From an uncultured Spirochaetia bacterium (lineage in GTDB: Bacteria > Oederibacteriota > PGYV01 > Palsa-1178), in contig CAZMGF010000001.1 in assembly GCA_964565765.1 (NCBI GenBank), positions 43,283 through 107,282 on the forward strand: a DNA stretch of 64,000 bases, read 5' to 3'. Of this stretch, positions 4,827 to 57,275 are shown piece by piece. The notes under the pieces are model-generated. The model had not been told where the DNA came from. It did not search any database and worked only from the letters and a program-made list of their open reading frames with translations. The translations under genes and the position numbers were made by a program. Position 1 is the stretch's first letter, and every line of letters begins with the position of its first letter.

Positions 4827-6377
4827 ATGAAAAAGATAGCGGCAATAATAATTTGTCTTGCGCTTTTGCAAATATTTACGGAAAATTCCGCGGCTAACGT
4901 TATAAATATACAGAATAATAATATAGGCTTAAATTTTGCCGATGATACATTTGGGTTTAATATGGGAACCAGCTATCTTTACAGCGTGCCTTCCGAACCG
5001 CTTACATTTGATTATCCCGGCACGTCGGAATTGCTTGACCCGCTATGCTTATCCACAACTCATTCAGTAATAAATGTGGACGGCAATTTATATGATTTTT
5101 ATGATTGCCCTGTAGTAGGTACTGTGACAAGCGGTTCCAATTATGTTTCCGGAACAAAACAGGCGGCCGGGGGAGACATACAGGTTAATTTAATGATGAG
5201 TCTGGTCAATAATCCTGCTATAAATTCGCCGGTAGATACGGTAAAAATTAAATACACCCTTACTAATTATTCGGCTGTGGCACACACAGTGGGAGTAAGG
5301 CTGGAATTAGACACAAAGGTTTTGGATCAGGACGGCGCTATTATTTCAACGGATAACGGCATTACAACATTGGCAACCACAACGGCCTGGTACAAATCCC
5401 TAGGACAGATACCGGCAAACTGGTGGGATTTTAACTCCAGCCCTTATTCGATTCCGCCGCCGGAGCTTGTCGGAAGAGGATATACATATAATAATCCTTA
5501 CGACGAAGCCGCAACAATGCCGGATATTATGGAAGTGGCGAATTGGGAAATGGTAAACGGAGACGCACAGTGGTCCGGAGAAACTATAGGCGACGGTCTT
5601 TCAGGACCTGATGACAGCGCTGTTGTATTCTGGTGGTGCAATGGTGATGGGGATCTTTCTTCGGGATTTACATTAAATCCGGGGGCTTCAATTTCATTTG
5701 TTACCTATTACGGGCTTAATGAGCAGGCGCTTCTTACCACACCGACAATTACCCCCACATATTCGCAGACATTCACAAGAACCCCGACTTTCACGATTAC
5801 CCGGACACCTACCATCACTTCGACATGGACAGGCACTTTTACCTTTACGCCTTCATTCACGCAAACATACACACCGACAATAACAAATACATTTACAAAC
5901 TCGCCGACATTTACAATTACCGCGACTGTTACCCCTACATCGACGGAAACGCCCACTTTTACAATTACCAATACATTCACGGTTACACCGACTGTAACGC
6001 CGACTTATACCGTAACAGAAACATTTACCCAGACACCTACACCAACAATAACCCCGACCTTTACCCCTACGCCGCCGCCTTTCAGGCTCATAGGCAAGGG
6101 CAATTTTCCAAACCCTTTTGTGAGCGACACATATCTGGTTTACTGGCTTTCAACTCCGGCGCAGACGGTCAAGCTTATGGTATACACCGTTTCCGGTGAA
6201 AAAGTTTTCTGGGACGACACCCTCACGGGGACTGCCGGTTATAATTCATACCACTGGACCGGCGTAAACAGGGCGCTGAAGCCCATCGCGTCAGGGGTTT
6301 TTATTTACAGGATAGACGCTTATGACGACAACGGCAACCACGCTGATGTAATTCAGAAGCTTGTCTGCGTAAAATAA
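4827..6377 (+). CDS. Secreted protein: N-terminal domain of unknown function, Thr/Pro-repeat linker, C-terminal Por/T9SS-like sorting domain
   Basis: Signal peptide MKKIAAIIICLALLQIF; about 110 aa of T-P-T/F-T repeats; C-terminus FPNPFVSDTYLVYWLS...MVYTVSGEKVFWDD shared with CDS 47779-51516 and 54297-57275. Confidence 0.6.
   Translation: MKKIAAIIICLALLQIFTENSAANVINIQNNNIGLNFADDTFGFNMGTSYLYSVPSEPLTFDYPGTSELLDPLCLSTTHSVINVDGNLYDFYDCPVVGTVTSGSNYVSGTKQAAGGDIQVNLMMSLVNNPAINSPVDTVKIKYTLTNYSAVAHTVGVRLELDTKVLDQDGAIISTDNGITTLATTTAWYKSLGQIPANWWDFNSSPYSIPPPELVGRGYTYNNPYDEAATMPDIMEVANWEMVNGDAQWSGETIGDGLSGPDDSAVVFWWCNGDGDLSSGFTLNPGASISFVTYYGLNEQALLTTPTITPTYSQTFTRTPTFTITRTPTITSTWTGTFTFTPSFTQTYTPTITNTFTNSPTFTITATVTPTSTETPTFTITNTFTVTPTVTPTYTVTETFTQTPTPTITPTFTPTPPPFRLIGKGNFPNPFVSDTYLVYWLSTPAQTVKLMVYTVSGEKVFWDDTLTGTAGYNSYHWTGVNRALKPIASGVFIYRIDAYDDNGNHADVIQKLVCVK
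5740..6075 (+). repeat. Low-complexity ACN-CCN-ACN (Thr/Pro) coding repeat, linker region
   Basis: Protein TPTFTITRTPTITSTWTGTFTFTPSFTQTYTPTITNTFTNSPTFTITATVTPTSTETPTFTITNT...; creates the spurious antisense VGV-rich ORF 5708-5980. Confidence 0.8.
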
Positions 6378-6440
6378 TAATCCATAATCCCGTCCATAAT
6401 ACATCTTTAAGAATGGCCAGAAATATGATAAATTATCCCT

Positions 6441-8393
6441 ATGATATTTATCCTGATCGCCGCCGCAGCTATTATAAACATTATTTTAGGGGTGCTTGCC
6501 CTCGTTAAAGGCAGGAACCGCCTGAATTTATCCTTTTCAATAATTTCATTTCTGCTTGCGGCGTGGAACATCTGCGTGGTTTTCTGGAACGGCTATAATA
6601 TGCCTGTCTTTTCAAGGATAAATTTCCTTTTTGTAACTTTCGTCCCTCCGGCCGCCCTCTTTTTTGTAAAATGCCTTTTTGAAGGGGAAAACACATCCGT
6701 AATGGACGGCATGCTTAAAGTTTATATGACGCTGGCCATTTCAGGGATGGTATTTACCATCTCAACATTTTTCTCAAAAACCCTCTTTGATATTTATATG
6801 CTTTACCAGGTGCGTTTTGCCATATTCATGTATGAGTGCCTAACGCTTCTTGGGGCATTTGGAGCCCTTATATACCGCTATATGCACATTAAATTTAAGC
6901 AGGAGAAAATTAAAATACGGTACGTGATAATGGCGTTTTTTATAATTTTTCTGGGAGGCATGCTTGATTTCATGGGCGGCCTGAAAATGCACAACCTGGA
7001 ATACATGGGAAACATAAGCAATGTGGCATACGCCGCCATTATTTTTTTTGCCATATTCCGCTTAAGGCTGCTTGACGCAGGGGTAATTTTTAAAAATTTC
7101 CTGGCCTACACGCTGGTGGCGGTTGTACTTGGCTCGGTTTATGCCGCCCTTGCGCTGGCCCTGAATGACAAGCCCATCGCAATGACAGCGGCGATGCTGA
7201 TAGTGAGCCTGCCTTCGGTTTATTTCCTTAAATACCTGCACGGCTACGCCGAACTTTTTGTCCGGAAAATAAGCGGGGTGCCGGCGACTGACGGGGCCAG
7301 GGCGGCATTCAACATTATAAAATCAACGCAGGCCGGAGAGGGAGAAAAAGTCAGGCGGATACTAATGCTTATAAGGGATTTTTGTGAGATGGACACGGCG
7401 ATATATTCCGCCGCCGGCGCCTATTATCTGCTCGCATGGGAAACTGAAAATAGCGGATTCGCAAGGGTCATGGACGCCCAGGACTGCCCGGAAAAAATAG
7501 TAATAAGGTATGAGGCAAAAAGCGGAAAGGAAAAAGAACTGCTGGATAAATTCGGGGCCTCTATTATAGCCCCGCTGAAATACGGTTCACAGGCGGCAGG
7601 CATCCTGGCCGGAAGGAAACAGACGTCGGACATTTCATTCAACCAGGATGAGATTGAGCTCATCAGCGACATGTGCGAAACAGCTGCTTTTTATATCAAG
7701 GCCCACAACCTGAACCAGAGGGTGATTGAAGAAGAAAATATGAAACGCGTGGCCATGATGGCGCGCCAGATGGCGCACGAGATTAAGAACCCGCTCGCCG
7801 CGCTATGGGGGGCCGCCCAGCTGCTTGAGGGGAAAAGCGCTGCGGACATTGAAAATACCGGCATAATAAGGGAGGAGATTACCCGCCTGACTGCCATGCT
7901 TGATTCATGGAAGGATTTTTCCGGCGAACTGAAACTTAACCCTTCAGAATTCAACATTGTAAAACTTGCGGCCGATGTGGTCAAACTTATAAAATTCCAG
8001 GGCATAGTCGCTGATATAGTCCTTAACGCGCACCAGGAAAATATCACTGTAAGTGCAGACGCTGATAAGATAAAACAGGTACTGCTTAACATCATATTGA
8101 ACGCCGCCCAGGCATCCGGGGAAGGCCCGTCGCCTTCCATAAAAATAGATGCGGCCCAAAAGAACGGGTTTGCCGAGATCAAGGTGCGCGACAACGGCCG
8201 CGGGATAGTCCCGGAGGTCATGGAAAAAATAAGGCAGCCCCTTTTTACCACAAAACCCAGGGGGTCGGGGCTCGGGCTGGCGGTTTCTGACAGAATACTA
8301 AAAGCGCACGGCGGCAGCATGATAATACAGAGCGACGGCAACAGCTACACGGAAGTTACCGTGGCCCTTTCAACGGCTGACGCGGCGTTATAA
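6441..8393 (+). CDS. Sensor histidine kinase (membrane-anchored; HisKA plus HATPase_c), partner of the downstream sigma54-type response regulator
   Basis: N-terminal multi-TM region; H-box MAHEIKNPLAAL; C-terminal GRGIVPE...GSGLGLAVS ATPase motifs. Confidence 0.8.
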   Translation: MIFILIAAAAIINIILGVLALVKGRNRLNLSFSIISFLLAAWNICVVFWNGYNMPVFSRINFLFVTFVPPAALFFVKCLFEGENTSVMDGMLKVYMTLAISGMVFTISTFFSKTLFDIYMLYQVRFAIFMYECLTLLGAFGALIYRYMHIKFKQEKIKIRYVIMAFFIIFLGGMLDFMGGLKMHNLEYMGNISNVAYAAIIFFAIFRLRLLDAGVIFKNFLAYTLVAVVLGSVYAALALALNDKPIAMTAAMLIVSLPSVYFLKYLHGYAELFVRKISGVPATDGARAAFNIIKSTQAGEGEKVRRILMLIRDFCEMDTAIYSAAGAYYLLAWETENSGFARVMDAQDCPEKIVIRYEAKSGKEKELLDKFGASIIAPLKYGSQAAGILAGRKQTSDISFNQDEIELISDMCETAAFYIKAHNLNQRVIEEENMKRVAMMARQMAHEIKNPLAALWGAAQLLEGKSAADIENTGIIREEITRLTAMLDSWKDFSGELKLNPSEFNIVKLAADVVKLIKFQGIVADIVLNAHQENITVSADADKIKQVLLNIILNAAQASGEGPSPSIKIDAAQKNGFAEIKVRDNGRGIVPEVMEKIRQPLFTTKPRGSGLGLAVSDRILKAHGGSMIIQSDGNSYTEVTVALSTADAAL

Positions 8394-8419: not shown

Positions 8420-9754
8420 ATGGCTAAAATACTTATTGCCGACGATGAGGAAAATATAAGGAAAGTATTAAAAGGGCTCCTTGCTAAAAACGGTTACACC
8501 GACGTGCTTCAGGCCCAGGACGGACTCAAGGCCCTGGAAATATTCCAGGATGAGAATATAGACCTGGTAATTTCCGACGTTAATATGCCGGTGATGGACG
8601 GCCTTGAATTTTTTTCAAGGATAAGGGAGAGCGGCGTCCCTTTTATAGTGCTTACGGCTTACGGCACAATTGAGACGGCGGTAAACGCGGTAAAAAGCGG
8701 TGTGTATGATTTTCTGCCGAAACCTTTTGACGAGCAGAACCTTGTTGATACGGTAAAAAAGGCGCTAAAAGAGAGCGGCCGCAGGGATACGGCCGCGGCT
8801 TCCGGGTCAATTGAGGAGATATTTTTTTCATCTTCCCATCCAGACATACTCAAAATAAAGCACATGCTTTCAAGGGTTATTAATACCAGGGCGGGTATAC
8901 TTATATGCGGGGAGACAGGCACCGGAAAGGGTGTGCTGGCCGGGATTATTCACGGGCTCAGCGTCGATAAGGCAAGCCCCTTCATAAAGGTCAACTGCGC
9001 GGCCATTCCGCAGGGGCTCATTGAATCCGAACTTTTTGGTTATGTAAAAGGGGCATTTACAGGGGCGGCCATTGACAAACCGGGAAAATTCGAACTGGCG
9101 GATAAGGGTACTATTTTTCTCGATGAAATAGGGGAATTGAGCCCAGAGATACAGGCCAAGCTGCTTTCTGTCATACAGGAAAAAGAGCTTACCAGGCTCG
9201 GGGATGTCAGGGTAAAAAAGGTCGACGCGCGGGTAATAGCCGCGACCAACATTGATATCAAGGCGGCCATAGAGGAGAAAAAATTCAGGGAGGACCTGTA
9301 TTACAGGCTCAACATTGTTGAATTCACACTTCCTCCGTTAAGGGAAAGATCCGCCGATATTCCCGCGCTTGTAAATTATTTTGCGGGGAAATATGCCGCG
9401 GAATTCGGTACGCAGATAAAGGAATTTGACGGCGCGGCGTTTGCAAGGCTGAAGTCATATCAATGGCCCGGCAACGTCAGGGAGCTTGAAAATATAATAC
9501 AGAAGGTATCCATAATGGAAAGTGAAACCCTGATCACAGCCGAAGCCCTGGGCGCTTATCTGAAAAGCGGGGTTTCCGGTGAAACCGCAGCAACCATGTT
9601 CGAGGCGGGCAGGGAGGAAAAGGCAAAAAAAGAAATTGAGCTTATAAAGGACGCGCTTGCCAGGACGCAGAACAACAAGACAAAGGCATCGGAGCTGCTC
9701 GGGATATCGCGCAGGACCCTTTTATACAGGCTCAAAGAATACTCGATGGAATAG
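8420..9754 (+). CDS. Sigma-54-dependent response regulator (NtrC/AtoC family: REC, AAA+ sigma54 activator, Fis-type HTH)
   Basis: KILIADDEENIRKVL REC domain; Walker A GETGTGKG; GAFTGA motif in ESELFGYVKGAFTGA; C-terminal HTH SELLGISRRTLLYRLKEY. Confidence 0.9.
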   Translation: MAKILIADDEENIRKVLKGLLAKNGYTDVLQAQDGLKALEIFQDENIDLVISDVNMPVMDGLEFFSRIRESGVPFIVLTAYGTIETAVNAVKSGVYDFLPKPFDEQNLVDTVKKALKESGRRDTAAASGSIEEIFFSSSHPDILKIKHMLSRVINTRAGILICGETGTGKGVLAGIIHGLSVDKASPFIKVNCAAIPQGLIESELFGYVKGAFTGAAIDKPGKFELADKGTIFLDEIGELSPEIQAKLLSVIQEKELTRLGDVRVKKVDARVIAATNIDIKAAIEEKKFREDLYYRLNIVEFTLPPLRERSADIPALVNYFAGKYAAEFGTQIKEFDGAAFARLKSYQWPGNVRELENIIQKVSIMESETLITAEALGAYLKSGVSGETAATMFEAGREEKAKKEIELIKDALARTQNNKTKASELLGISRRTLLYRLKEYSME

Positions 9755-44839: not shown

Positions 44840-45105
44840 AAACGAGTAGGGGCCGCCCCATGTGGCGGCCCCGGTAGAAACTGTAGAGCCGCTGCTTACT
44901 GCGGCTAAAACATGGCAGGCAGGCCTTTTTTTTGGTCGTCCGTCAACCGGACACACTCGAGGTATGTCGATAGAAAAAGCCGAAAGTGTTATTATAGTTT
45001 TACCTTTGCGATATTTACGCAGGCCTTATTGTTGACGTCCGGCACAAAAAAAAGTTCCGCCTGCCATATTTAACGCTGTAGGGGCCGCATTATATGGCGT
45101 CCCAA
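44840..45105 (+). repeat. Intergenic repeat copy C (about 230 bp), direct repeat of copy B; flanked by two REP-like GTAG-hairpins
   Basis: aGTAGgggccgcc-ccatgt-ggcggcccc (44845-44872); gGTAGaaactGTAGagccgctgcttactgcggct; IR arms 44911-44922 / 45057-45067; tGTAGgggccgcattatatggcgtccc (45077-45103). Confidence 0.75.
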
Positions 45106-45162
45106 AATATGGCACGCAGCGTTCCGGCACTGTTAATTAACAAACATAAAAAAGGCAGGACA

Positions 45163-45690: not shown

Positions 45691-45691
45691 A

Positions 45692-46123
45692 ATGGAACAC
45701 AATGGCATGGAAGGGCGCGGCTGCGAGCATGGGCATGACTGGCCGGCTTTGAGGATCCTTAAGGTTGTGGGAATGGTAATCGGCGGGCTTTTTATTGCCG
45801 TGGTTTTCGGGTTCCTGTTCGGATATTTTGTAATGAAGCTCTGGAACTGGCTTATGCCTGATATTTTCGGACTGAAAACAATAGGTTACTGGCAGGCTTT
45901 CGGCATAGTGGTGCTGGCAAAAATGCTCTTCGGCGGATCTCACGGATCCCATTACAAGCATCATGGCGACAAATGGCGCCGCAGGCCATGGAGGCACATG
46001 CACGGCGGGGAATGGGCGCCGGGCGGGGATTATTCCAACTGGAAATATTACGAGGATTACTGGAAGAGCGAGGGAAAAGCCGCTTACGAGGCTTACCTTG
46101 AGAGGATAAAAGGGAACAAATAG
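45692..46123 (+). CDS. Two-TM membrane protein with His/Trp/Arg-rich cytoplasmic tail, translationally coupled to the ECF sigma gene (candidate anti-sigma or metal-sensing partner)
   Basis: AAGGAGG 7 nt upstream of ATG that follows the sigma stop by 1 nt; GSHGSHYKHHGDKWRRRPWRHMHGGEW tail. Confidence 0.5.
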   Translation: MEHNGMEGRGCEHGHDWPALRILKVVGMVIGGLFIAVVFGFLFGYFVMKLWNWLMPDIFGLKTIGYWQAFGIVVLAKMLFGGSHGSHYKHHGDKWRRRPWRHMHGGEWAPGGDYSNWKYYEDYWKSEGKAAYEAYLERIKGNK

Positions 46124-46149
46124 CCGTAAAAACAAGGAAACCGCAAAAA

Positions 46150-46176
46150 GCCGGGGCCAAAACCCCGGCTTTTTTA
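46150..46176 (+). terminator. Rho-independent terminator
   Basis: GCCGGGGCcaaaaCCCCGGCttttttatttg. Confidence 0.7.
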
Positions 46177-46177
46177 T

Positions 46178-46206
46178 TTGTATTTATCGCCCCTTTTGTT
46201 TATAAT
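46178..46206 (+). promoter_or_regulatory. Sigma70 promoter TTGTAT-17-TATAAT for the lipoprotein gene
   Basis: ttgtatttatcgccccttttgttTATAAT. Confidence 0.4.
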
Positions 46207-46247
46207 TAAATATCTTAAATGGAACAAAAAAAGAAACAGGGATAAAA

Positions 46248-47072
46248 ATGAAAAAACTCGCTCTGGTCATAGCCGCAGGATTTCTGCTGGTTTCATGTTC
46301 GAGCCGCCACAATCCGGCGGTTTCCCCTTTTTCGCCGGCATATTACACAAACACCGGAAAAATAAAGAGCTCTACCGTTACAACATATATCATATCTTCG
46401 ACAACCGCCGGGACATATTATTATGACTCCTCCGGAAATATTCAGAGAATAGACAACACAGTGTCTTCAATCCCTTCAGGGTCCGTTTTTTACCAGTATA
46501 CCGGTTCCGGCATGGTATCCTTTATAGGCAATCCGCAGTGCGTGACCCAGAACGGCAATGAATCTTTTTCGTATGACTCCTCAAACAGGCTCAGTGTGAT
46601 GAATTTCACGGCCACATACACGACAACATCCAATGATGTTCAGACGCTGAATTACGGGGGCGACGGCTATGTGGATACTATAAATGAGACGCAGAACGGG
46701 GCCACGGCATGCTACAGGGTGATAACAAGGGACGCTTATGGTTTTATAAACAGAGAGGATATTTACCCGAACCCTTCCTCCACTACGGAATTCGGTTATA
46801 TAACTTTTACGCGGGACGACGCCGACAAGATTGTTACTGAAAATATATTCATCGGTGCGGTTAATATGCTTACTGTATCCGCTGTTTATGATACGTCCGG
46901 ATTTATTTCACAACTGAATTATTCGGTTGGCGGGTTGCCGGTCATAAGCCAGAGCTTTGTGACCCAGAGCGGGCCGTTTGCGGCAGCGGGCTTAAACGGA
47001 TATTATTATACTGATAAGGACCTTTTCGGCCTTGCACACGATACGGTAAACGCGGGAAGCGCCGGGCAATAA
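46248..47072 (+). CDS. Ser/Thr/Tyr-rich lipoprotein of unknown function
   Basis: MKKLALVIAAGFLLVSCSS lipobox; no recognisable domain. Confidence 0.55.
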   Translation: MKKLALVIAAGFLLVSCSSRHNPAVSPFSPAYYTNTGKIKSSTVTTYIISSTTAGTYYYDSSGNIQRIDNTVSSIPSGSVFYQYTGSGMVSFIGNPQCVTQNGNESFSYDSSNRLSVMNFTATYTTTSNDVQTLNYGGDGYVDTINETQNGATACYRVITRDAYGFINREDIYPNPSSTTEFGYITFTRDDADKIVTENIFIGAVNMLTVSAVYDTSGFISQLNYSVGGLPVISQSFVTQSGPFAAAGLNGYYYTDKDLFGLAHDTVNAGSAGQ

Positions 47073-47778: not shown

Positions 47779-50700
47779 ATGAAAAGGAATTCCATTTTTT
47801 TATCTTCTATAATAGTTTTCATTCTTATAATTATTTCTTTTTCATTTTCAGATACCTGCAATTTTCCTTTCCCGCAGAACATAAACTATCCATACGGCAT
47901 CAAGCCAAATAATTTTACAAACGCGCAGATGGACCAGCACTGCCTGGACTGGTTCAATAAGTGGAAGGCATATTACGTCACCCAGAATAACTGCACCGGC
48001 AGTGAGTGGCGAGTACAGAGGACGGTTACGGGCAACGGCATAACCAACGGCTGTTACGGTTTCGCGACAGCTCCGGCCGAGAACGATACGGTCAGCGAAG
48101 CGATAGGGTATGGAATGGTAATCATGGTTTTCATGTCATCCGCAACCAACAACACACAGCAGTATTTTAACGGTTTTTATACCTACTACAAGGATCACCT
48201 GGACGGCGCCGGTCTCATGAACTGGCAGATACCATACTGCAACAGCGGCGGCTCGGCCACTGATGCCGATGAGGATGTTGCATTTGCGCTGCTGGCAGCT
48301 GACAAGCAGTGGGGTTCGGCGGGAGCAATCAATTACAAGAGCGAGGCAAATACTATAATTGGAAGGATACTTTCAAATGAGATAACCGCCGCCAACGACA
48401 TAAGGCCCGGCGACGGCTGGGACGGGGCGAATATCTCATATTTTGCCCCTTATGAATACAGGATGTTCGGGGATTATACCGGAACTTCACAATGGTATTC
48501 TGTGGCTTCGCATACCTACCAGACAATTGTAAATTATTACTCCAGCAATTCCCAGACGGTCAATGCCGCTCTCGGTATGGATACCGGCCTGATGCCAAAC
48601 TGGTGCAATTACGACGGGACCACATGGAGCCCGGGGGCATGGTCCATGGACCCAAACTCATGGTGGTGGGACGCTATCCGCCACGCGTGGAGGCAGAGCT
48701 ATGATTACCTGCTTTACGGCACCATGAACAGTCCGCTGGCCTACAGCAACAACAACAAAATATCCACATTTTTCCAGACAAAATATAACGGCGACGCCAC
48801 AAAAATACTTTCCCATTATACCCTCGACGGCACTGAAACACAGTACAACAGGGGGGACAGGACGCCTGATCTTGGCACAGAGGATGTAAGGAACCTGCCG
48901 GGCCCGGAGGGCGCGGTCGCGATTTCGGCCATGGTTGAAGGCGACCAGAACTGGCTGAATGAATGCTATTATGACCTGGTAACAATGGACGCCGGCACCG
49001 GCTCTGGAGGTCTTACAAACACCGGCGTGTTATGGGGAACGGATTATTTCTGCGACATATTGAAGATGCAGTATTTACTTATTCTTACGGGCAATATGCC
49101 AAATCCTATGGGAAACTATCCCACGCCAACTCCCACAAACACATGGAACGTATTGACCCCGACCCCGACCCCGTCGCCTACGCCGATAAGAGGGATGTTT
49201 GATGATTTTGAGACCGGAAATATAATCAATCTTGACACATCGGCAGGAGGCCAGACAGCTTTTACTTCGGTGGTGAATACAACAAACAGGCCGGCGGCAT
49301 TAACAGGCGGAGGTTTGCGTGACCTACAAATAACCTCTACTGCCAATGGCTGGGGGGCTTATGGAGAGGACTCACCATACACAGGGGGGCTCGGATATCT
49401 TGATGAAACAGGAGCGACAGCACTGTCATTCTACATTTATCCGACAGTGGCGCTCTCGGGAAATTTCTTTGTGAAACTTGTCGAGGCAACGGCCAACGGC
49501 GCTGATGGTGAAACATATTCAAACAGGATAACTGAAAGCACAAATTCAGCCCCGGCAAATACATGGACAAAGATAACTATCGCCATCACCAATACTTCCG
49601 TCTTCAGCAGGGACCAGTATAATACGGTTAACGGGGACGGTGTACTTGATTTGAGCGGTATCAAGAGTTTCTATTTACAGGTTGACAGCGCCCCGAACGC
49701 GACCATATATATAGACAATATACAGTTCACCGGGAATTTTCCGACGGTTACGCCGACTTCCACTGTGACAAAAACAAGGACGCCCAACGGGACGCCGACC
49801 AACAGCCCTACAATCACAGTGACCGCGACAAATACCCTTTATTATTCACCGACAATTACACCGACATGGAGCTCAACGCAGACAAATACTCCTTATATAA
49901 GCCCCACTATAACGCAGACTTCGACCATTACTCCGACTTTTACCCTGACGCCTTACATTCCTTTCGGGGTTTTTGACGATTTTGAGACAGGGGTATTTAA
50001 AAATTTAAATACAACTGATACCGGAGGCGGATCGACGGTTGCGGTTACCAACGTGACCACAACGGTTCATGCCGGCACTCATTCAATGCAGGTTGTAACA
50101 ACCGGAACAGCAGGATGGGCCGTTGTTACAATTGATTCGCCTTATGACGGCGGACTGGGTTACCGTAATTTTACCGGGGCAACCGCGCTTAATTTCTGGA
50201 TAGACGCGCCGGCCGGCACCGTATTGTTCGTAAAGGTTGTCGAGACGAACGGGCAGCAGTGGTCGGATAGGAACGTACCTATTACTGTTCCGGCCTCGGG
50301 TTGGCAGGATATAAATGTTGCGCTATCTTCGCTTACTGTGGACCAGTATTCACCCACCGGCGATGGGGACGACGTACTGGATCTAAACATTATTCAGAGC
50401 GTGACTTTTCAGTGGAACAATCCCGGAAATATGACCATGTATATAGATGACATAAAATTTACCGGCATGCCCACTCCTACAATGACGCAGACATCCACCA
50501 AAACAGCCACATTCACGCCCACCATGACTCCGAGCGCCACGGACACTCCGACGTTTACACTTACGCAGACCCCTGCATTTACAAAAACATATACGCCTTC
50601 AATTACGCCCACATATTCATTTACTGTACCGGCGACCATTACATTTACACAAACAGCAACGCCCACAACTACATTTACATACACCGGTACTCCGACATTT

Positions 50701-51516
50701 ACGGCCACTTCAACGCCGACATTCACATTTACCATGACAGTGACGCAGACAAGGACAGTATCGCCGACAATTACAATATCGCCCACGGGCACTCCGCCGA
50801 CGCAGACTGTAACGCCTACGGTAACTGCCACATCTTCTGCAACCCTGTCGGTCACGCCGAGTTTTACGCGGACATTTACAGGAACATTTACAATGACAGC
50901 CACGCCTTCATTTACCCCGACATATACGCAGACATCAACCGCGACATTTACCTTTACCCAGACGCTTTTCGTAACTCCGTCAATTACGCCGTCAGTAACG
51001 GCAACCATGACAGGCACGCCGCCAACCGCAACTTTTACTTCGACTGTAACGCAGACGGCCGCGAATACATATACTTTTACAATGACGTTTACCGGCACCG
51101 CAACCCAGACAATGACACCCACAATGACATTTACCTGTACTTTTACCCCGCAGGCGGTTCCAAGCGCGGTACTTACATTTACTGCCACTCCGACACTGAC
51201 GCCGGGCAATAACGGCGGGACAAAAACAGTTATTTTTCCAAATCCATACAATCCGGCCGCGGGCGGCAAGCTTGGAATAAGTTTTTATACTGAAGATACT
51301 TACAGTGAAATTCAATTCAAGGTATATACATGCTCATACAGGCTGGTATATTACGGGACACAGAGCGGAAGCTTCAAGGGGCAGACAGAAGCGGACATGG
51401 ATGCCGGCGGGTTTACAAAATTTGCCAATGGTGTATATTTTTATGCGGTGTCAGGGACAAATACCGGCGGACAGCAAAAAAAGTTTTCCACGGGAGTGCT
51501 TGATATTATTAAGTGA
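47779..51516 (+). CDS. Multidomain secreted glycoside hydrolase: GH8 catalytic domain, two tandem CBM-like beta-sandwich domains, three Thr/Pro linkers, C-terminal Por/T9SS-like sorting domain
   Basis: Signal peptide MKRNSIFLSSIIVFILII; GH8 signature ATDADEDVAFALLAADKQWG; duplicated about 160-aa module FDDFETG...GGLGY...IYIDNIQFTG (49195-49740, 49960-50460); C-terminus VIFPNPYNPAAGGKLGISFY... Confidence 0.75.
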   Translation: MKRNSIFLSSIIVFILIIISFSFSDTCNFPFPQNINYPYGIKPNNFTNAQMDQHCLDWFNKWKAYYVTQNNCTGSEWRVQRTVTGNGITNGCYGFATAPAENDTVSEAIGYGMVIMVFMSSATNNTQQYFNGFYTYYKDHLDGAGLMNWQIPYCNSGGSATDADEDVAFALLAADKQWGSAGAINYKSEANTIIGRILSNEITAANDIRPGDGWDGANISYFAPYEYRMFGDYTGTSQWYSVASHTYQTIVNYYSSNSQTVNAALGMDTGLMPNWCNYDGTTWSPGAWSMDPNSWWWDAIRHAWRQSYDYLLYGTMNSPLAYSNNNKISTFFQTKYNGDATKILSHYTLDGTETQYNRGDRTPDLGTEDVRNLPGPEGAVAISAMVEGDQNWLNECYYDLVTMDAGTGSGGLTNTGVLWGTDYFCDILKMQYLLILTGNMPNPMGNYPTPTPTNTWNVLTPTPTPSPTPIRGMFDDFETGNIINLDTSAGGQTAFTSVVNTTNRPAALTGGGLRDLQITSTANGWGAYGEDSPYTGGLGYLDETGATALSFYIYPTVALSGNFFVKLVEATANGADGETYSNRITESTNSAPANTWTKITIAITNTSVFSRDQYNTVNGDGVLDLSGIKSFYLQVDSAPNATIYIDNIQFTGNFPTVTPTSTVTKTRTPNGTPTNSPTITVTATNTLYYSPTITPTWSSTQTNTPYISPTITQTSTITPTFTLTPYIPFGVFDDFETGVFKNLNTTDTGGGSTVAVTNVTTTVHAGTHSMQVVTTGTAGWAVVTIDSPYDGGLGYRNFTGATALNFWIDAPAGTVLFVKVVETNGQQWSDRNVPITVPASGWQDINVALSSLTVDQYSPTGDGDDVLDLNIIQSVTFQWNNPGNMTMYIDDIKFTGMPTPTMTQTSTKTATFTPTMTPSATDTPTFTLTQTPAFTKTYTPSITPTYSFTVPATITFTQTATPTTTFTYTGTPTFTATSTPTFTFTMTVTQTRTVSPTITISPTGTPPTQTVTPTVTATSSATLSVTPSFTRTFTGTFTMTATPSFTPTYTQTSTATFTFTQTLFVTPSITPSVTATMTGTPPTATFTSTVTQTAANTYTFTMTFTGTATQTMTPTMTFTCTFTPQAVPSAVLTFTATPTLTPGNNGGTKTVIFPNPYNPAAGGKLGISFYTEDTYSEIQFKVYTCSYRLVYYGTQSGSFKGQTEADMDAGGFTKFANGVYFYAVSGTNTGGQQKKFSTGVLDIIK
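50460..51220 (+). repeat. About 760-bp Thr/Pro/Phe coding low-complexity repeat (linker), with shorter copies at 49080-49200 and 49730-49975
   Basis: PTPTMTQTSTKTATFTPTMTPSATDTPTFTLTQTPAFTKTYTPSITPTYSFTV...; antisense VGV-rich ORF 50409-51269 is a shadow of this repeat. Confidence 0.8.
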
Positions 51517-51536: not shown

Positions 51537-54050
51537 CTATTTTAAGCCCGGAATGTCCGCGCCTGATGACAGCAGGGATATTTCAGAAAAAACCTGCGGT
51601 ACAATAAAAAAATTATCACAGACAATATAACGCGGGTTCCATAAAGGTGAAAACTCCTCTTTCGACTTCCTGAGAGACCGTCCATTCGAAAGTTTCAGGC
51701 CGTAATTGAATAATGCCGCCGCGGCGTGGTTTAATGCCGGCGTATAGGAATTAATCGCCGAAATATTCGAAGGAGCAAGGCCGAGGTTGAAAAACGCGAA
51801 ATGTTTTTCCTTGCCCCACAGGATAAGATTATATTTAAGAAACCGTTCAACGCCGTCAGGCGCGCTCCGCGAATACCTTATGATATCCATTCTGTATTCA
51901 CCATGTTCCGGGCCCGTAAAAATATCGGAGAAACAGACAGGCTGGCCGTTTCTGTCAAAAACACAGGCTATATGAAAATGCCTTAGATATTCCACGTCAA
52001 AATGGCCGATCAAAAATCCCGGTTCTTTTATTCCGTGATATTTAAGCCATTCATCCGATATTGAGGCTATTTTTTTATAAAAAGACGGCGGAGAGTTCCT
52101 TGGCATCATCCTGAATGAATATCCGGAGATCTCCAGTTTTTTTGTAAAGGATTTCAGAAGGCCTTCCACAGCGACTTCCCGGGGATAATATTCAAGGGCT
52201 ATACGGGCTTCGTCGCCTATTTTGTAAAAATTAAGGCCGGTATTTTTGTAAAAATGCAGGTTCTCGCCGGATACGTTAAAAAAAACACAGGAAGCGCCGT
52301 GCGAAAACGCGAGCCTGCGGAATTTCCAGATTAATTCCTCGAGCTCCACATACGGGCCGCATGGGTCGCCGAGCGCTATCCAGCGGCTGCCGCACCTGGC
52401 GTACATTAAAAAAGAGAGGCGGGACCATGAAAATAAAAGATTTTTGTCGCCGGAAAGGGCCAGCTGGGAGAGAGTGTCCGGAGAGTTAAACGCTATGGAG
52501 GCCGCGGTGTTTACATCATATTTTGTGGATGTATGGGGCGAAGGTTTGTATGGAATAAAAATATAGGCAATCATCCAGATTGCAAGCGCCGCGCCGGATG
52601 AGAAAAAAGAAAGCACGCCCTGTATATACGCCGCCTGGCCGCGGGCGGCCGGAGAAAGATACACAGCCAGCCCGCAAAGGCAGGCCGTTCCGGAGGCCGC
52701 ATAGAAAAATCCCGATGTCGGCATTTCGGTAAACGGCCCGCTTTTTCTGTAAAAATTTTTTCCGAAAGGCAGCATGAACAAAAGAATAAGGTAAAACGCC
52801 GAAGCGGCCTCGTATGAAAAACTGTTTATCATCAGCAGCGCGCCGCATGCCGCAAGCAGGCCCAGAGAAAGATTATATGAAGAATAAAGGTTCTTCTGCA
52901 GGCCGCGGGTGCACATTATAAGCCCTGCGCCGCATAACGAGAGAAGAACCGCAGAAAAAGGCTGCAGCAGGGGAGGCATTATTGATGAAACAACGCCGAA
53001 CCGCGGCATTATATAAGGAACGCAGGATATGAACATAGAGGCGGCACCGGCGGAAAAAATAAGGCATGAAAAGAAGTAACCCGGTGTGGAAGAAAGCAGG
53101 TCCTTTAACTCGCCTGCTTTCTTAAAAAAATTAGTGCGCGCATGGACCGCCTCGGCAGCGCCGTAAACTATATATGAGCAGGCCAGAGGCAGCAGATAAT
53201 ATATTATCCTGTAAACGACAAGGGCCCCGAGTATTTCCGGCCCGGATATGCCGGAAGATGAAAGCAACCAGACAGTTGAGGCTTCAAAAACACCGAGCCC
53301 GCCCGGGACATTGCTTATTATCGCAAGAAATTCAGAGGCCAAAAATACCGCTAAAAAAAAGACGAAACGCGAAGGATCAGCGGAAAAAAGAATGAAAAAC
53401 GCGGCGGCGGCTGATGCCCATTCTAAAACTGAAAACAATACCTGAAGGGCCACTGTCAGAAGGCCGGGCGGGTTAAGACTGTATCCAAAAGCCTTTATTT
53501 CCTTTTTTGAAAATCCGCCCCAGATGAGATACGCGGCAAGAAGGATGACGAACACAGCGGCTGAGGCCGCAAGCCCGGCGCCTGTCCTGCCGGTAAAAAA
53601 CAGGGAGCGGGACGGGAAAAAAATGAGGATGGAACTTAAGGCGCAGAAGCCGGTAAAGGAAGAGATTTCGCAGAAAGCAATAACTCTGGCGATTTCAGCG
53701 GCGGAAAAGCGCCAAAGTGAATAGAGCCTTAAACGGACGGCTGATGAGGACAAAAGCGAGAGTCCCAGGCTGTTTCCGAATGCGTTTGCGGCGAATGATA
53801 CCGCCGCCGCATTCCACAGGGATATTTTTTTTCCGGCATAACGCGCCGCCAGGAAATCATATGATGCCATTGACATGTAACTCAGGGCGGTAAAAAAGAG
53901 GGATAATATTATCCTTGGCGCGCTTATACCGGAAAAGGAAAAGGGAAAGCCGGAACTTTTTTTGAAATATCCCGCCAGAATGAAAAGTGAGGCAAAAAAC
54001 AGGATCCCCGTAAAAGCAGCCCCCAGCTGTCTTAACAGTTTGGTATTCAT
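51537..54050 (-). CDS. MprF-like aminoacyl-phosphatidylglycerol synthase/flippase (LPG-synthase TM domain plus DUF2156 C-terminal domain), putative
   Basis: 837 aa; about 14 predicted TM helices in the N-terminal 520 aa; soluble C-terminal domain with LFSWSRLSFLMYARCGSRWIALGDPCGP region reminiscent of DUF2156. Confidence 0.45.
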   Translation of the reverse strand: MNTKLLRQLGAAFTGILFFASLFILAGYFKKSSGFPFSFSGISAPRIILSLFFTALSYMSMASYDFLAARYAGKKISLWNAAAVSFAANAFGNSLGLSLLSSSAVRLRLYSLWRFSAAEIARVIAFCEISSFTGFCALSSILIFFPSRSLFFTGRTGAGLAASAAVFVILLAAYLIWGGFSKKEIKAFGYSLNPPGLLTVALQVLFSVLEWASAAAAFFILFSADPSRFVFFLAVFLASEFLAIISNVPGGLGVFEASTVWLLSSSGISGPEILGALVVYRIIYYLLPLACSYIVYGAAEAVHARTNFFKKAGELKDLLSSTPGYFFSCLIFSAGAASMFISCVPYIMPRFGVVSSIMPPLLQPFSAVLLSLCGAGLIMCTRGLQKNLYSSYNLSLGLLAACGALLMINSFSYEAASAFYLILLFMLPFGKNFYRKSGPFTEMPTSGFFYAASGTACLCGLAVYLSPAARGQAAYIQGVLSFFSSGAALAIWMIAYIFIPYKPSPHTSTKYDVNTAASIAFNSPDTLSQLALSGDKNLLFSWSRLSFLMYARCGSRWIALGDPCGPYVELEELIWKFRRLAFSHGASCVFFNVSGENLHFYKNTGLNFYKIGDEARIALEYYPREVAVEGLLKSFTKKLEISGYSFRMMPRNSPPSFYKKIASISDEWLKYHGIKEPGFLIGHFDVEYLRHFHIACVFDRNGQPVCFSDIFTGPEHGEYRMDIIRYSRSAPDGVERFLKYNLILWGKEKHFAFFNLGLAPSNISAINSYTPALNHAAAALFNYGLKLSNGRSLRKSKEEFSPLWNPRYIVCDNFFIVPQVFSEISLLSSGADIPGLK

Positions 54051-54296: not shown

Positions 54297-57275
54297 ATGA
54301 GGCCGGGAAAATTATTGTTTATATCATTTTTTTGCGTGCTGCTTTTTCCGGCGGTTTTTTTAAGGGCCAATGTCGCCGGCGGCGGAACAGGCACCGGAGC
54401 GAACGTGACTGCGACACAGACAGGCAATAATGTGGTCCTGGCTAACGGCATAGTTTCTATTACAATAGACATCACCAATGGCAATATCACAAATTTTACC
54501 TATAAAGGCACGAACCTTATGGCAGGCGGCAACGGCGGTGGATATTTCTATATAGACGGCTCCGGCGGGCCCACACTGACGAATCCGGCTTACACCCTGA
54601 CGGTTAATCCGGCGGACAACGGCGGGAATCAGGCTGAAGTGGAGCTGCAGACGCTTGGCAGCCCCATGGATTGCACCCTTTATTACGACCTGCTACGCGG
54701 ACAGCAGGGTATCTACGACACTCTGGTACTGACACATGAAAATACATACGCAGACTACCCCGGAGCTGAACTGCGCACTAATATGTACGTAGGCTCAATG
54801 TTCGACTGGATATGCGTTAACCCTTACCGGTTCCGCCAGATGGCCTCGCCAAATGACACTTACATAGCCACTCCCGGAGCGCCCGCGGAAGTATTTGATT
54901 TCACCAGCGGTATTTATTCCGGCACCACGGGATGCAAATATTCCTACAGTCAGCCGCTTGGCCAGACGAACGCATACGGCTGGGCCTCAACCACATCAAA
55001 ATTTGGAATCTGGCAGACCTTCCCGAGCCATGAATATCTGGACGGCGGGCCCATGCACAGGGAACTAACCGCGCACCTTGGCAACACTCTGCTTGACATG
55101 TTCGGAGGCGGACACTACGGCTTCGGACTTTCCCAGGATCAGCCGGCCGGAACATTTGTTTCCAAGACCTTTGGCCCGGCTTTCATTTACGCCAACGAAT
55201 ACACGGGCACTGCCACTGATGTCAGCATATACGCGCAGGCTTTATTTACTGACGCTCAGGCGCAGGCCCAGGCAGAGCAATCTGCATGGCCCTACGCCTG
55301 GTTCAACCCGCAGCCGGAGGCGACGGGTTCCGGCACCACGGTTTCCGCATACCCGCAGGCTGCGGACAGGGCAACCGTAACAGGTACTTTTGCCATCAAC
55401 GACGCATATAATCCCGCGGCATCACCTGCGGGCATGTGGATAGGGTTGGCGCCGCTTGACGGCGGGGTGGATTTCCAGCAGCAGTATCTCACCTGCCAGT
55501 TCTGGGTACAGACCGGAGCCGGAGGCGCTTTTTCAATTCCAAACGTGCTGCCGGGAATTTATAATCTCTGGGCCTTCGGGCCTGGAGCGGCCGGCACCTT
55601 CGAACAGTCCAATATAACCGTGGCCGCGGGGCAAACCCTGAATCTTGGAGCAGTGACATGGGCTCCGCTGCGCCTCGGGCCGACTGTGTGGGAAATAGGC
55701 GTGCCGGACCGGAGCAGCGAAGAATTTAATAATGGAGAGCACGACGTGACCCCCTGGAGCGGCGTTCTGCCGCCATACGCAGGCGGCGCGCCATACAACA
55801 CTCCGGCGGTATGGTCCGCTTTTCTGGATTATGCAAACCAGTTCCCAAATGATGTCAGCTACACGGTCGGCGTAAGCAACTACGCCTCTGACTGGAATTA
55901 TTGCCAGCCTACCATACTAAATGCCGGCGGCACATACGTGGGAACCACATCAAAAATTTATTTCAATCTGGCAAAGGCGCCTGCGGCGGGAAATCAGGCG
56001 CGCCTGTATATAGCATTTGCGGCCGGCTACAGCGCGGCCTGCATACTAACCATTAACGGAGTTGTCCAGACTGCGCCGGTCACAGGATCCACAGACGGGG
56101 CCAACGCGGCAACCATAGCGAATTCAACCACGGGATTTTATGTGCCAAACTACAGCTTTGATACCATGGTGCGCCTGGGCACGGACGGGGCATGGGGAGA
56201 CGCATACCTTGATTTTCCCGGTACTAATCTTAAGGCGGGATGGAACGAAATTGATATAGGCCTGCGGCCGACCGGAGGGGCAGGCAACGGCAATGGTTTT
56301 GAATATGATTATATAAGGCTTGAGCTTCAGGGCTACGCCCAGCCGAGCCCTACTCCTTCTCCGCAGGGTACCGCTGCGGCGACATATTCGCGGACTGTAA
56401 CTCCTTCATATACGGGGACGCCGGCCAATACTTTTACCATGACTGCTTCCGCGACATCAACTTTAACAAGGACATCTTCATACACAGCCACGGAAACCGG
56501 GACATATACGCCTGCATTAACTGCGACCCGGACTTTAACTTTTTCAGCGACACCAACGCCGACCCCGGCAAATTCTGTGACTTTCACGGCAACACCGTCG
56601 CAGAGTGTTATTGCCACGGCGGCTTTCACGCAAACAACCACAGCTTCGGCCACATTTACGGCGGCGGAAACCGGGACAATGACAGCAACCACCGCTTATA
56701 TGCTGACTGAAACATTAACATCCACGCCTTCATATACATTTACAATAACTGTTACGAAGACAATTACCGGAACCGCAACTGGCACGGTTACTGCGACATA
56801 TTCCCGTACATCAACGGCTGTCATAACGACAACCTGGACAGCCATGCCGTCTTATACTGCAACCGCAGCAGCCACTATAACCCTGACGATAACCAGCCAG
56901 GCAACCCCTTCCGCTACATTGATTTATACGGCTGCTTCAACCCCTACAGCGGCGGAATCTCCGGTTCCTGAAAGCACGCCGGCTGAAGTAATTGTCTATC
57001 CTGATCCGTACGATCCGGAAAAAGGAAACCTGAATATCATGTACAGCCTTGCTGAACCGGAGTCTTCCGTGGAATTCAGGCTCTATACAAGGGGGTTCAG
57101 GCTTATAAGGCAGGAAAATCTGACCGCGGGCATTGCCGGAATAAAAACAGATAACGTCCCGGCGGATGTTTTTGACGGACTTTCAAACGGAATTTACATA
57201 TATGTGCTGATAATAAAGGGAGATGACGGAATGGAAAGGCCGGGGAAATTAAGGGAAATGATAATTTTAAGGTAA
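54297..57275 (+). CDS. Secreted rhamnogalacturonan-lyase (PL4)-like enzyme with Thr/Ala/Ser linker and C-terminal Por/T9SS-like sorting domain
   Basis: Signal peptide MRPGKLLFISFFCVLLFPAVF; N-terminal region IVSITIDITNGNITNFTYKGTNLMAGGNGGGYF...VWEIGVPDRSSEEFNNGEH reminiscent of RG-lyase beta-sandwich/CBM-like domains; C-terminus VIVYPDPYDPEKGNLNIMYS... shared with the two other CTD proteins. Confidence 0.5.
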   Translation: MRPGKLLFISFFCVLLFPAVFLRANVAGGGTGTGANVTATQTGNNVVLANGIVSITIDITNGNITNFTYKGTNLMAGGNGGGYFYIDGSGGPTLTNPAYTLTVNPADNGGNQAEVELQTLGSPMDCTLYYDLLRGQQGIYDTLVLTHENTYADYPGAELRTNMYVGSMFDWICVNPYRFRQMASPNDTYIATPGAPAEVFDFTSGIYSGTTGCKYSYSQPLGQTNAYGWASTTSKFGIWQTFPSHEYLDGGPMHRELTAHLGNTLLDMFGGGHYGFGLSQDQPAGTFVSKTFGPAFIYANEYTGTATDVSIYAQALFTDAQAQAQAEQSAWPYAWFNPQPEATGSGTTVSAYPQAADRATVTGTFAINDAYNPAASPAGMWIGLAPLDGGVDFQQQYLTCQFWVQTGAGGAFSIPNVLPGIYNLWAFGPGAAGTFEQSNITVAAGQTLNLGAVTWAPLRLGPTVWEIGVPDRSSEEFNNGEHDVTPWSGVLPPYAGGAPYNTPAVWSAFLDYANQFPNDVSYTVGVSNYASDWNYCQPTILNAGGTYVGTTSKIYFNLAKAPAAGNQARLYIAFAAGYSAACILTINGVVQTAPVTGSTDGANAATIANSTTGFYVPNYSFDTMVRLGTDGAWGDAYLDFPGTNLKAGWNEIDIGLRPTGGAGNGNGFEYDYIRLELQGYAQPSPTPSPQGTAAATYSRTVTPSYTGTPANTFTMTASATSTLTRTSSYTATETGTYTPALTATRTLTFSATPTPTPANSVTFTATPSQSVIATAAFTQTTTASATFTAAETGTMTATTAYMLTETLTSTPSYTFTITVTKTITGTATGTVTATYSRTSTAVITTTWTAMPSYTATAAATITLTITSQATPSATLIYTAASTPTAAESPVPESTPAEVIVYPDPYDPEKGNLNIMYSLAEPESSVEFRLYTRGFRLIRQENLTAGIAGIKTDNVPADVFDGLSNGIYIYVLIIKGDDGMERPGKLREMIILR
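56335..56995 (+). repeat. Thr/Ala/Ser/Pro low-complexity coding repeat (linker)
   Basis: SPTPSPQGTAAATYSRTVTPSYTGTPANTFTMTASATSTLTRTSSYTATETGTYTPALTATRTLTF... Confidence 0.75.

Follow-up and report, generated by a model that had tools for sequence, protein, structure and literature searches.

T9SS cargo of type A, represented by RgpB, mirolase and NucA from Bacteroidota, ends in a CTD with an Ig-like fold, in which a conserved Lys among the last residues is needed for secretion (PMC10202324). The type B CTD system combines its cargo with a PorP/SprF barrel and the peptidoglycan-binding PorE (PMC9143113; PMC10202324), and T9SS genes are reported to be confined to FCB phyla (PMC11285876). Many uncultured lineages use FlgD_ig (PF13860) as a C-terminal tail.

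The DNA described here comes from an uncultured, plant-polymer-degrading bacterium of candidate phylum FCPU426/Goldbacteria, a lineage in which T9SS has not been described. FCPU426 and Goldbacteria reportedly have an unusual wealth of CBMs, cellulases and mannanases (PMC9765126), and members have been captured cellulose-bound, in a study that is silent on the route by which the enzymes reach the surface (PMC7031533). In a 64-kb window, by which we mean the whole stretch of DNA analysed, we find three proteins with related C-terminal tails. With reasonable though far from full confidence, we place these tails in the T9SS type A / FlgD_ig sorting-domain superfamily, as a branch that is divergent and specific to the lineage, and propose an export mechanism for the proteins that bear them.

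Architecture of the three proteins

Three ORFs, CDS 4827-6377 (A), 47779-51516 (B) and 54297-57275 (C), were verified by sequence inspection and are laid out as follows.

4827..4895, + strand: A, signal-peptide-like N-terminus (aa 1-23), with a KK n-region, a hydrophobic core and SAA ahead of residue 24
4896..5738, + strand: A, N-terminal cargo domain with no assigned function (aa 24-304), source name hypothetical protein
5739..6098, + strand: A, linker of (Thr-x)n type (aa 305-424), with T at 44% and x mainly P/F/I, from composition and period-2 alternation, with no DNA tandem repeat
6105..6377, + strand: A, C-terminal tail (aa 427-516 plus stop), probable FlgD_ig / type A CTD-like subtype from HMM scores and hhalign
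47779..47850, + strand: B, signal-peptide-like N-terminus (aa 1-24), by sequence inspection
47851..49140, + strand: B, GH8 catalytic region (PF01270, E = 1.3e-20, aa 69-333), source name endo-1,4-beta-D-glucanase Y
49141..49194, + strand: B, short Pro/Thr linker 1 (aa 455-472), from sequence composition
49195..49740, + strand: B, CBM11-like module 1 (Pfam CBM_11 in two stretches; 41% identity to module 2, E = 3e-29)
49741..49962, + strand: B, (Thr-x)n linker 2 (aa 655-728), from composition
49963..50463, + strand: B, CBM11-like module 2 (PF03425, best stretch aa 732-895, E = 2.8e-13)
50464..51222, + strand: B, (Thr-x)n linker 3 (aa 896-1148, 41% T), from composition
51226..51516, + strand: B, C-terminal tail (aa 1150-1245 plus stop), FCPU426-type subfamily
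54297..54368, + strand: C, signal-peptide-like N-terminus (aa 1-24), by sequence inspection
54369..56348, + strand: C, PL4-type rhamnogalacturonan lyase region (PF14683, E = 1.5e-22; PF14686, E = 2.7e-17), source name rhamnogalacturonan endolyase
56349..56981, + strand: C, linker of (Thr-x)n type (aa 685-895), with T at 35% and x mainly A/S/P, from composition
56985..57275, + strand: C, C-terminal tail (aa 897-992 plus stop), FCPU426-type subfamily (BLASTP to the B tail, E = 2e-13; family HMM 93.1 bits)

The ATG of B at 47779 yields the signal-peptide-like N-terminus MKRNSIFLSSIIVFILIIISFSFS and the ATG of C at 54297 yields MRPGKLLFISFFCVLLFPAVFLRA, while protein A begins with MKKIAAIIICLALLQIFTENSAA; all three were judged by eye. 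The JGI call likewise gives a product of 1245 aa for B, and the NCBI call gives C an identical start and a length of 992 aa. A is followed downstream by a histidine kinase gene, B by mprF on the opposite strand and C by lacI.

A first-pass annotation had described a signal peptide, one or more T-rich linkers and a conserved tail in each of the three CDSs, an architecture that inspection, composition and alignment bear out, and had counted two of the three cargos as CAZymes, which Pfam confirms as GH8 (B) and PL4 (C). Its description of the proteins as paralogous applies to the tail alone: the homology is limited to that domain, the likeness of the linkers is compositional, and the cargos differ (GH8 with CBM11-like modules, PL4, and a domain of no family). 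The Pfam matches in C correspond to PL4 domains II/III, with weak matches to PF06045 and PF09284 at its N-terminus. The N-terminal ~300 aa of A match no Pfam or NCBIfam family, and a comparison with PDB sequences returned nothing meaningful (one marginal match, MxiI, E = 0.017); an AF2 single-sequence model of this cargo was unusable (pLDDT 32.6).

Thr/Pro-rich interdomain linkers are familiar from bacterial cellulases and from T9SS-secreted glycanases (Cytophaga hutchinsonii, Fibrobacter succinogenes). The linkers studied here share with those their nature as long spacers, rich in hydroxy amino acids, that separate catalytic, CBM and sorting modules in glycanases that are secreted or at the surface. 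Their T content is 35-44% (A aa 305-424, B aa 655-728 and 896-1148, C aa 685-895), and adjacent TT occurs at 0-0.19 of expectation against 1.75-2.13 for T-x-T. This strict period 2 of Thr, kept over 120-253 residues in A, B and C, sets them apart from the known linkers, as does the x position, where bulky hydrophobic residues (F, I, Y, V) are frequent besides P, A or S. No DNA tandem repeats were found in the linkers, and a recent tandem duplication was rejected on that ground; a reading of the (Thr-x)n regions as membrane beta-barrel strands was rejected because Pro recurs every 4-10 residues. As the first-pass annotation proposed, these regions may be O-glycosylated.

Homology of the tails and their relation to sorting-domain models

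The linkers are compositionally biased and produce shadow ORFs (that at 50409-51269, minus strand, is an artefact of B linker 3), so that the resemblance of the three Thr-rich proteins might itself be taken for chance or low complexity. We consider this explanation refuted and give it practically no credence. The tails (~90-96 aa) are not low-complexity, and a six-frame scan of the window places [FY]P[ND]P[FY] in the A, B and C ORFs only, at a fixed distance of 90-93 codons upstream of the stop. Tails B and C match by BLASTP at E = 2e-13, with 24% identity over 86 aa. BLASTP gives no significant match between tails A and B; the A tail aligns with the B/C family HMM at 22.0 bits (E = 6e-6, profile positions 4-94) and with the family by hhalign (95.8%, E = 7.8e-9, 84 columns). 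The alignments thus extend beyond the PNP motif, and the wider family that they open (561 representatives, below), together with an AF2 tail model of pLDDT 95, likewise speaks against an artefact. By sequence comparison, then, B and C are clearly homologous, and A joins them only at the profile level. Within the explanation that we favour, B and C would represent one tail subtype and A a more FlgD_ig-like one.

The likeness to T9SS type A and FlgD_ig domains put forward in the first-pass annotation can be measured against curated cutoffs of 23 bits (TIGR04183), 27 (PF18962), 27 (FlgD_ig, PF13860) and 27 (CHU_C, PF13585). The A tail matches TIGR04183 (19.4 bits), FlgD_ig (17.6 bits) and CHU_C (14.1 bits), all below cutoff, and the C-terminal region of PorU at 29.5 bits; the isolated B tail reaches 17.9 bits with TIGR04183, 19.4 with PF18962 and 17.2 with CHU_C, again below cutoff. 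A Pfam/NCBIfam scan of full-length B and C returned no tail match, and all three window tails lie under the curated cutoffs of TIGR04183, PF18962 and FlgD_ig. Across the family, isolated tails match at E<=1 TIGR04183 in 57 of 73 cases (best 1.1e-6), PF18962 in 49 of 73 (best 1.7e-5) and FlgD_ig in 31 of 73 (best 1.3e-6); CHU_C is matched by 29 of 73, the PorU C-terminal region by 26 of 73 and PorZ by 9 of 73. The proposed resemblance is borne out in part, with the reservation that the window tails score below cutoff and that B and C at full length have no tail match. Taken together, these profile matches support a relationship of the window tails to the T9SS type A sorting domain and to the FlgD_ig domain.

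In layout the tails follow the type A CTD closely. Each forms the very C-terminus of a protein that has a signal-peptide-like N-terminus (by eye), an arrangement like that of Sec-exported, mostly hydrolytic T9SS cargo, and has a PNP-type motif near its start and a G-x-Y strand. A basic residue (motif E) closes each tail, motifs A-E being matched by position rather than by structural residue alignment; the last residues, LVCVK in A, LDIIK in B and MIILR in C, all stand at the stop codon. The window tails depart from the type A CTD in their sub-cutoff scores and in their length (~96 aa against ~75). With FlgD_ig the A tail shares the pattern SG-x-V...W.G...G....SGVY; scores are below threshold here too, and the B/C subtype has FRLI in place of the W-x-G segment. 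As to type B CTDs (PF13585 CHU_C / TIGR04131), A and B score below cutoff and no PorP/SprF gene lies downstream of A, B or C. Anchoring of the PEP-CTERM, LPXTG or exosortase type was rejected, as the tails are folded beta domains without a terminal transmembrane helix.

A C-terminal tail family in candidate phyla

Word-indexed homologue searches with the tail profiles retrieved nothing at first and then six short fragments only, whereas an exhaustive search of 1.84 billion representatives retrieved 561 cluster representatives of the B/C tail family at E<=1e-3, of which 97 pass E<=1e-10. In 116 of 148 proteins the end of the domain is the C-terminus itself, in 143 of 148 it is no more than 4 residues away, and K or R is the last residue of 120 of 130 family tails. 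T makes up at least 25% of the 100 aa preceding the tail in 52 of 66 long proteins. The cargos are mostly hydrolases (GH5, seven times, GH9, GH44, GH30, GH26, GH18, GH8, GH16, S8 and M6 proteases) and include CBMs. The family consensus, YPNPYNP ... LANGxYYY ... SKxxxLIIL[KR], also has IYTxxFRLI; the motifs IYTxxFRLI, LANGxYYY and LIIL[KR] are its own and distinguish it from the T9SS type A CTD, although matches to the HMMs of the latter recur throughout the family. Orthologous cargos that are ~90% identical carry tails that are 30-57% identical.

The tail is predicted by AF2 to form a compact Ig-like beta-sandwich of seven strands, as published for type A CTDs (PMC10202324, PMC11285876). Foldseek of the tail against the PDB returned generic Ig-like matches only, and searches of PDB sequences returned nothing or spurious antibody light chains. 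The likeness to T9SS CTDs might be one of shared beta-sandwich fold, the tail being an ordinary C-terminal Ig-like or FlgD_ig module of structural or adhesive function (for instance spacing, or binding to substrate or cell wall) with no part in sorting. A few family members (for example, P0002, P0009, P0100 and P0128) do contain 4-13 internal tandem copies of the tail profile, unlike a sorting signal, and the HMM scores under curated thresholds point the same way. Against this stand the placement of the domain to the residue at the C-terminus with its K/R end, its occurrence as a single copy per protein on unrelated cargos, best family matches to T9SS models and not to CBM or adhesin families, and the PorV homologues that neighbour it (below), so that we think an ordinary Ig module quite unlikely.

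The family tails that could be named to a genome come from MAGs of FCPU426, Goldbacteria and Firestonebacteria and not, as the type A CTD does, from FCB phyla; by NCBI taxonomy labels FCPU426, Goldiibacteriota and Firestonebacteria are candidate phyla outside the FCB group, and the tail-carrying MAGs accordingly lie outside the known range of T9SS hosts. The closest loci, located by a genome scan with a three-sequence tail alignment, come from MAGs that bear the labels FCPU426, Goldiibacteriota, Firestonebacteria and 'uncultured Spirochaetia'. In the source annotations these proteins are called 'hypothetical' or carry the name of their catalytic domain alone. The comparison of scores with the cutoffs covered the window tails, and these fall under the curated T9SS models; genome surveys are therefore likely to overlook both this secretome and any T9SS-like pathway that these phyla may have. 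With a dedicated tail profile, the surface enzymes of these lineages could be listed, and it could be tested whether T9SS or a PorV-based relative reaches beyond the FCB superphylum.

PorV-like barrels and a proposed route to the cell surface

None of SprA/Sov, PorU, PorZ and GldK/L/M/N is encoded in the 64-kb window, and the annotated window genes agree with the first-pass annotation in containing no T9SS core gene; the window has no PorV-like gene either. Nor did SprA/Sov, PorU, PorZ or GldK/L/M/N families appear in ~150 kb of Pfam-annotated contexts (around seven PorV-like homologues and, in flanking metagenome contigs, at both window ends), a negative that, window and contexts together, extends over little of any one genome. 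A recurrent neighbour family lies beside the tail genes in 6 of 30 related loci. The four members scored against NF033709 (PorV/PorQ family; cutoff 90) match it over the whole model, with 99.6 (L014), 118.4 (L018), 120.1 (L028) and 118.7 bits (L031), below the equivalog cutoffs for PorV (250), PorQ (220) and PorV2 (325), and the sole PDB match of the barrel-family profile is F. johnsoniae PorV (6h3i_F, E = 1.2e-23). Judged by these profiles, the neighbouring barrels are members of the PorV/PorQ family; standing beside tail genes in relatives, they are also the sole machinery-like evidence. At loci L034 and L036, tail-bearing proteins are encoded on both sides of the barrel gene. At L027, L028, L031 and L047, the gene directly after that of a large protein, whose C-terminus is CHU_C- or FlgD_ig-like, encodes a PorV-like barrel-OmpA fusion, with OmpA alone or with FlgD_ig and TPR. 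The related loci thus carry the same modules as the type B CTD system, with the differences that their barrel fits the PorV/PorQ model and not PorP_SprF, that the modules are fused in one protein, and that the pair of cargo and barrel-OmpA is absent from the window. PorV-like barrels also adjoin MalK and GH94 genes, and their co-location with CAZymes could therefore mean uptake and not secretion.

Barrels of this kind could serve docking rather than T9SS export, with cargo leaving by T2SS or another translocon and the Ig-like tail binding PorV-like barrels non-covalently, some of them OmpA-tethered to peptidoglycan, for surface display in a non-FCB phylum. Several PorV-homologous paralogues adjoin tail-bearing genes, and the barrel-OmpA-TPR fusions directly after large cargo genes would suit such an arrangement, as would a lineage beyond the published range of T9SS and tails that vary on near-identical cargos, which fits co-evolution with variable partner barrels. 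T9SS core genes were likewise seen nowhere in the annotated contexts, which are nonetheless too small a part of any genome to establish core-gene absence. PorV in characterised systems acts with SprA (PMC10202324), and the kinship of the tail in sequence and fold is specifically to T9SS cargo CTDs; we accordingly hold docking without canonical T9SS to be rather unlikely.

Under the explanation that we favour, a divergent branch of the T9SS type A / FlgD_ig superfamily, Sec would export the pre-proteins through their N-terminal signal peptides, and the ~95-aa Ig-like tail would fold in the periplasm, displaying its PNP turn, LANGxYYY strand and terminal hydrophobic-K/R end with a free C-terminus. 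An outer-membrane pathway including PorV-homologous barrels would then recognise the tail and bring the cargo to the cell surface, where the tail would be cleaved or kept bound to the barrel. The 120-250-residue (Thr-x)n segments may act as extended, possibly O-glycosylated spacers that keep the catalytic and carbohydrate-binding modules off the membrane. More tentatively, FCPU426/Goldbacteria and Firestonebacteria may possibly run CTD-guided surface display outside FCB, in which multiple cognate PorV-homologous barrels, some of them OmpA-tethered to peptidoglycan, would read an Ig-like tail of ~96 aa that evolves fast and sits on a (Thr-x)n stalk. Such a pathway, whether a strongly divergent T9SS or one without the SprA/GldKLMN core, would in that case be how these cellulolytic bacteria equip their surface with glycanases.

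A search for PorU among the long family members gave matches to NF033707 for 3 of 45 (best 1e-45), perhaps the three repeat proteins with high FlgD_ig scores in the same scan, and these were set aside as no evidence of a sortase. Some PorV-like barrels also match Pfam UPF0164, a family from Treponema, a genus not known to have T9SS, and this counts against the favoured explanation. The conserved neighbours of the barrel-OmpA fusion, also considered and dismissed as candidates, are GatA and GatB, both of them housekeeping genes.

Three secreted proteins and their tails

[quoted passage not shown]

4827–6377 (+): A
47779–51516 (+): B, tail 51226–51516
54297–57275 (+): C, tail 56985–57275

The observation is confirmed and its interpretation partly supported. 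All three ORFs exist in the window as annotated; starts at 47779 (B) and 54297 (C) give N-termini resembling signal peptides, and identical products are called there by JGI (B) and NCBI (C). In a six-frame scan of the window, [FY]P[ND]P[FY] is restricted to the reading frames of A, B and C, 90–93 codons upstream of each stop. The long Thr-rich linkers are likewise present in all three, with Thr in strict period-2 alternation (T-x-T at 1.75–2.13 times, adjacent TT at 0–0.19 times expectation), paired with P/F/I in A, P/F/A/S in B and A/S/P in C. A search of the linker regions for DNA tandem repeats found none, which argues for constraint by composition, not recent duplication. Two further ORFs within this (Thr-x)n coding DNA, a Val/Gly-rich 286-aa antisense frame in B (50409–51269, −) and a 124-aa ORF in a different frame of A (5825–6199, +), were rejected as genes, being shadow ORFs arising from ACN-rich DNA.

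Tails B and C align by BLASTP over 86 residues (E = 2e-13). BLASTP found no similarity between tails A and B; at the profile level, tail A matches the HMM of the B/C family over the full tail length (22.0 bits, E = 6e-6) and aligns with that family in hhalign (probability 95.8%, E = 7.8e-9). The tails therefore belong to one superfamily with two subtypes, B/C and A. Homology holds for the tails but not for the remainders, which are unrelated and comprise different cargos. Two cargos are carbohydrate-active enzymes, as first proposed: GH8 with two CBM11-like modules (41% identical to one another) in B, and a PL4 rhamnogalacturonan lyase in C. The N-terminal 280 residues of A have no family match and one marginal match among solved structures (MxiI, E = 0.017).

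The tail family and T9SS sorting domains

Searching 1.84 billion representatives with a profile built from tails B and C gave 561 proteins at E ≤ 1e-3, of which 97 reach E ≤ 1e-10. Among the best 150 matches, the domain ends at the exact C-terminus in 116 of 148 and at most four residues from it in 143 of 148; 120 of 130 terminate in K or R, and 52 of 66 long proteins have a Thr content of 25% or more in the 100 residues before the domain. The family consensus is xxxYPNPYNPxxGxLxIxF...IYTxxFRLI...AG...LANGxYYYxI...SKxxxLIIL[KR]. Prevailing cargo domains (45 long members) are GH5, GH9, GH44, GH30, GH26, GH18, GH8, GH16, S8/M6 proteases, CBMs and Kelch propellers; source annotations read 'hypothetical' or name the catalytic domain, nothing else. 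A few proteins of the representative library, such as P0002, P0009, P0100 and P0128, contain 4–13 internal tandem copies matching the tail profile, so the fold serves as a repeat module too, besides a terminal signal; P0100 and P0128 belonged to the protein set that yielded three very strong FlgD_ig matches.

Isolated family tails match the type A CTD models TIGR04183 (57/73, best 1.1e-6) and PF18962 (49/73), as well as FlgD_ig (31/73), CHU_C (29/73), the C-terminal region of the PorU model (26/73) and PorZ (9/73). The proposed resemblance therefore stands for the family, but all the window tails fall below curated cutoffs: A scores 19.4 with TIGR04183 (cutoff 23) and 17.6 with FlgD_ig (cutoff 27), B 17.9 with TIGR04183 (cutoff 23) and 19.4 with PF18962 (cutoff 27). 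Family models scanned against full-length B and C leave the tail unmatched. An AF2 model of the B tail, with the family alignment as input, reached pLDDT 95.2 and pTM 0.83; Foldseek against the PDB returned generic Ig-like matches only, with many FnIII and Ig domains at near-equal scores. A non-sorting Ig-like module is the less likely reading, and we think it improbable. The published type A CTD is itself a seven-stranded Ig-like sandwich bearing conserved motifs, in which a Lys among the last residues is required for secretion; PorV binds it and PorU cleaves it (PMC10202324). The tails match it as regards fold, position and a basic residue at the end. Most likely, and in our judgement probably, they are a variant of the T9SS-type CTD, divergent and specific to the lineage, on a (Thr-x)n stalk, which would guide Sec-exported cargo, glycanases included, to the cell surface by a pathway that would include PorV homologues.

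Lineage and tail divergence

Window proteins were found on JGI metagenome contigs and one NCBI contig of 114 kb. MAGs with the tail, in a scan taking one genome per species, bear the labels candidate division FCPU426, Candidatus Goldiibacteriota/Goldbacteria, Candidatus Firestonebacteria, 'uncultured Spirochaetia' and 'uncultured Endomicrobia'; Balneolales and Bacteroidetes gave weaker matches of canonical type. Two related loci, L004 and L006, share synteny with the window, mprF lying on the opposite strand between the genes for the GH8 and PL4 proteins; their catalytic regions are 80–91% identical to B and C, which places the window organism in the FCPU426/Goldbacteria lineage, known to degrade cellulose and to be CBM-rich (PMC7031533; PMC9765126). 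Tails of these ~90%-identical orthologous cargos share only 57% and 54% (B) and 30% (C) identity, and the C tail is nearer to tails on non-orthologous proteins (41–42%) than to that of its own orthologue. This suggests rapid divergence or tail swapping, the tails apparently changing or being exchanged much faster than the enzymes.

PorV-like barrels and gene neighbourhoods

The 64-kb window lacks T9SS genes, those of the core as first noted, and none was found in adjacent metagenome DNA. Of 30 related loci, 6 have a member of one and the same family in their flanks; the four members scored match the PorV/PorQ family model NF033709 over its whole length (99.6–120.1 bits, cutoff 90), and among all PDB sequences the profile of the recurrent family finds F. 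johnsoniae PorV only (E = 1.2e-23). Tail-bearing CAZymes flank the barrel gene in L034 and L036. Docking on a PorV barrel without a canonical T9SS would be the more novel reading; it is favoured by the absence of SprA, PorU and GldKLMN families from the annotated contexts of related loci, which cover a small part of any genome, and we regard it as unlikely. The FCPU426, Goldbacteria and Firestonebacteria phyla are not under the FCB group in NCBI taxonomy, and T9SS genes are stated to be absent beyond FCB phyla (PMC11285876). Whether the FCPU426/Goldbacteria phylum has a canonical T9SS core is the decisive question.

A conserved gene pair encodes a large protein whose C-terminus resembles CHU_C or FlgD_ig and, directly after it, an OmpA-fused barrel of the PorV/PorQ family:

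L027:2539–8238 (FCPU426)
L028:2785–8421 (FCPU426)
L031:3280–8424 (Firestonebacteria)
L047:1–11632 (metagenome contig)

At L028 and L031, FlgD_ig and TPR are further parts of the fusion, and the pair is located between pcrA and two further genes (gatA/gatB in L028). These are the same modules as in type B CTD cargo with PorP/SprF and PorE (PMC9143113).

At two other loci (L038:7531–13557, L046:7745–13490) a MalK-type ABC ATPase gene, bracketed by two PorV/UPF0164-like barrel genes, lies upstream of a GH94 cellobiose phosphorylase, a hint that some PorV-like barrels serve oligosaccharide uptake, not secretion. Some also match Pfam UPF0164, a family from Treponema, which is not known to have a T9SS.

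Other features of the window are as follows.

2831–4744, 6441–8393 and 8420–9754: CDSs neighbouring A
31910–33100 (+): lipoprotein-like ORF, ~8 tandem ~40-aa repeats (GFS.G.A.Y.SLQ...GTPYVAY.D)
41016–42062 and 45094–47072: region upstream of B with a FecR-like protein and the next three features
45094–45690: ECF-type sigma factor, 86% identical to its L004 counterpart
45683–46123: small ORF overlapping the sigma factor gene
46248–47072: lipoprotein-like ORF, 69% identical to its L004 counterpart
51537–54050 (−): MprF-like lysyl-phosphatidylglycerol synthase gene between B and C
58500–58860 region (L002:20722–21081): small PilZ-domain gene after the LacI regulator, downstream of C

A TonB-type receptor (Plug domain, 637 aa) lies 82 bp upstream of A, with a histidine kinase and a sigma-54 response regulator downstream; together with A these may form one substrate-sensing/uptake unit. 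The FecR-like protein, ECF-type sigma factor, small ORF and lipoprotein-like ORF upstream of B may be a regulatory module of the glycanase genes. The mprF placement is kept in L004 and L006 (65–72% identity). The sole family match of the repeat ORF at 31910–33100 is a weak one to the Rax2 beta-propeller. PilZ genes also stand directly upstream of a PorV-like gene in L036 and L037.
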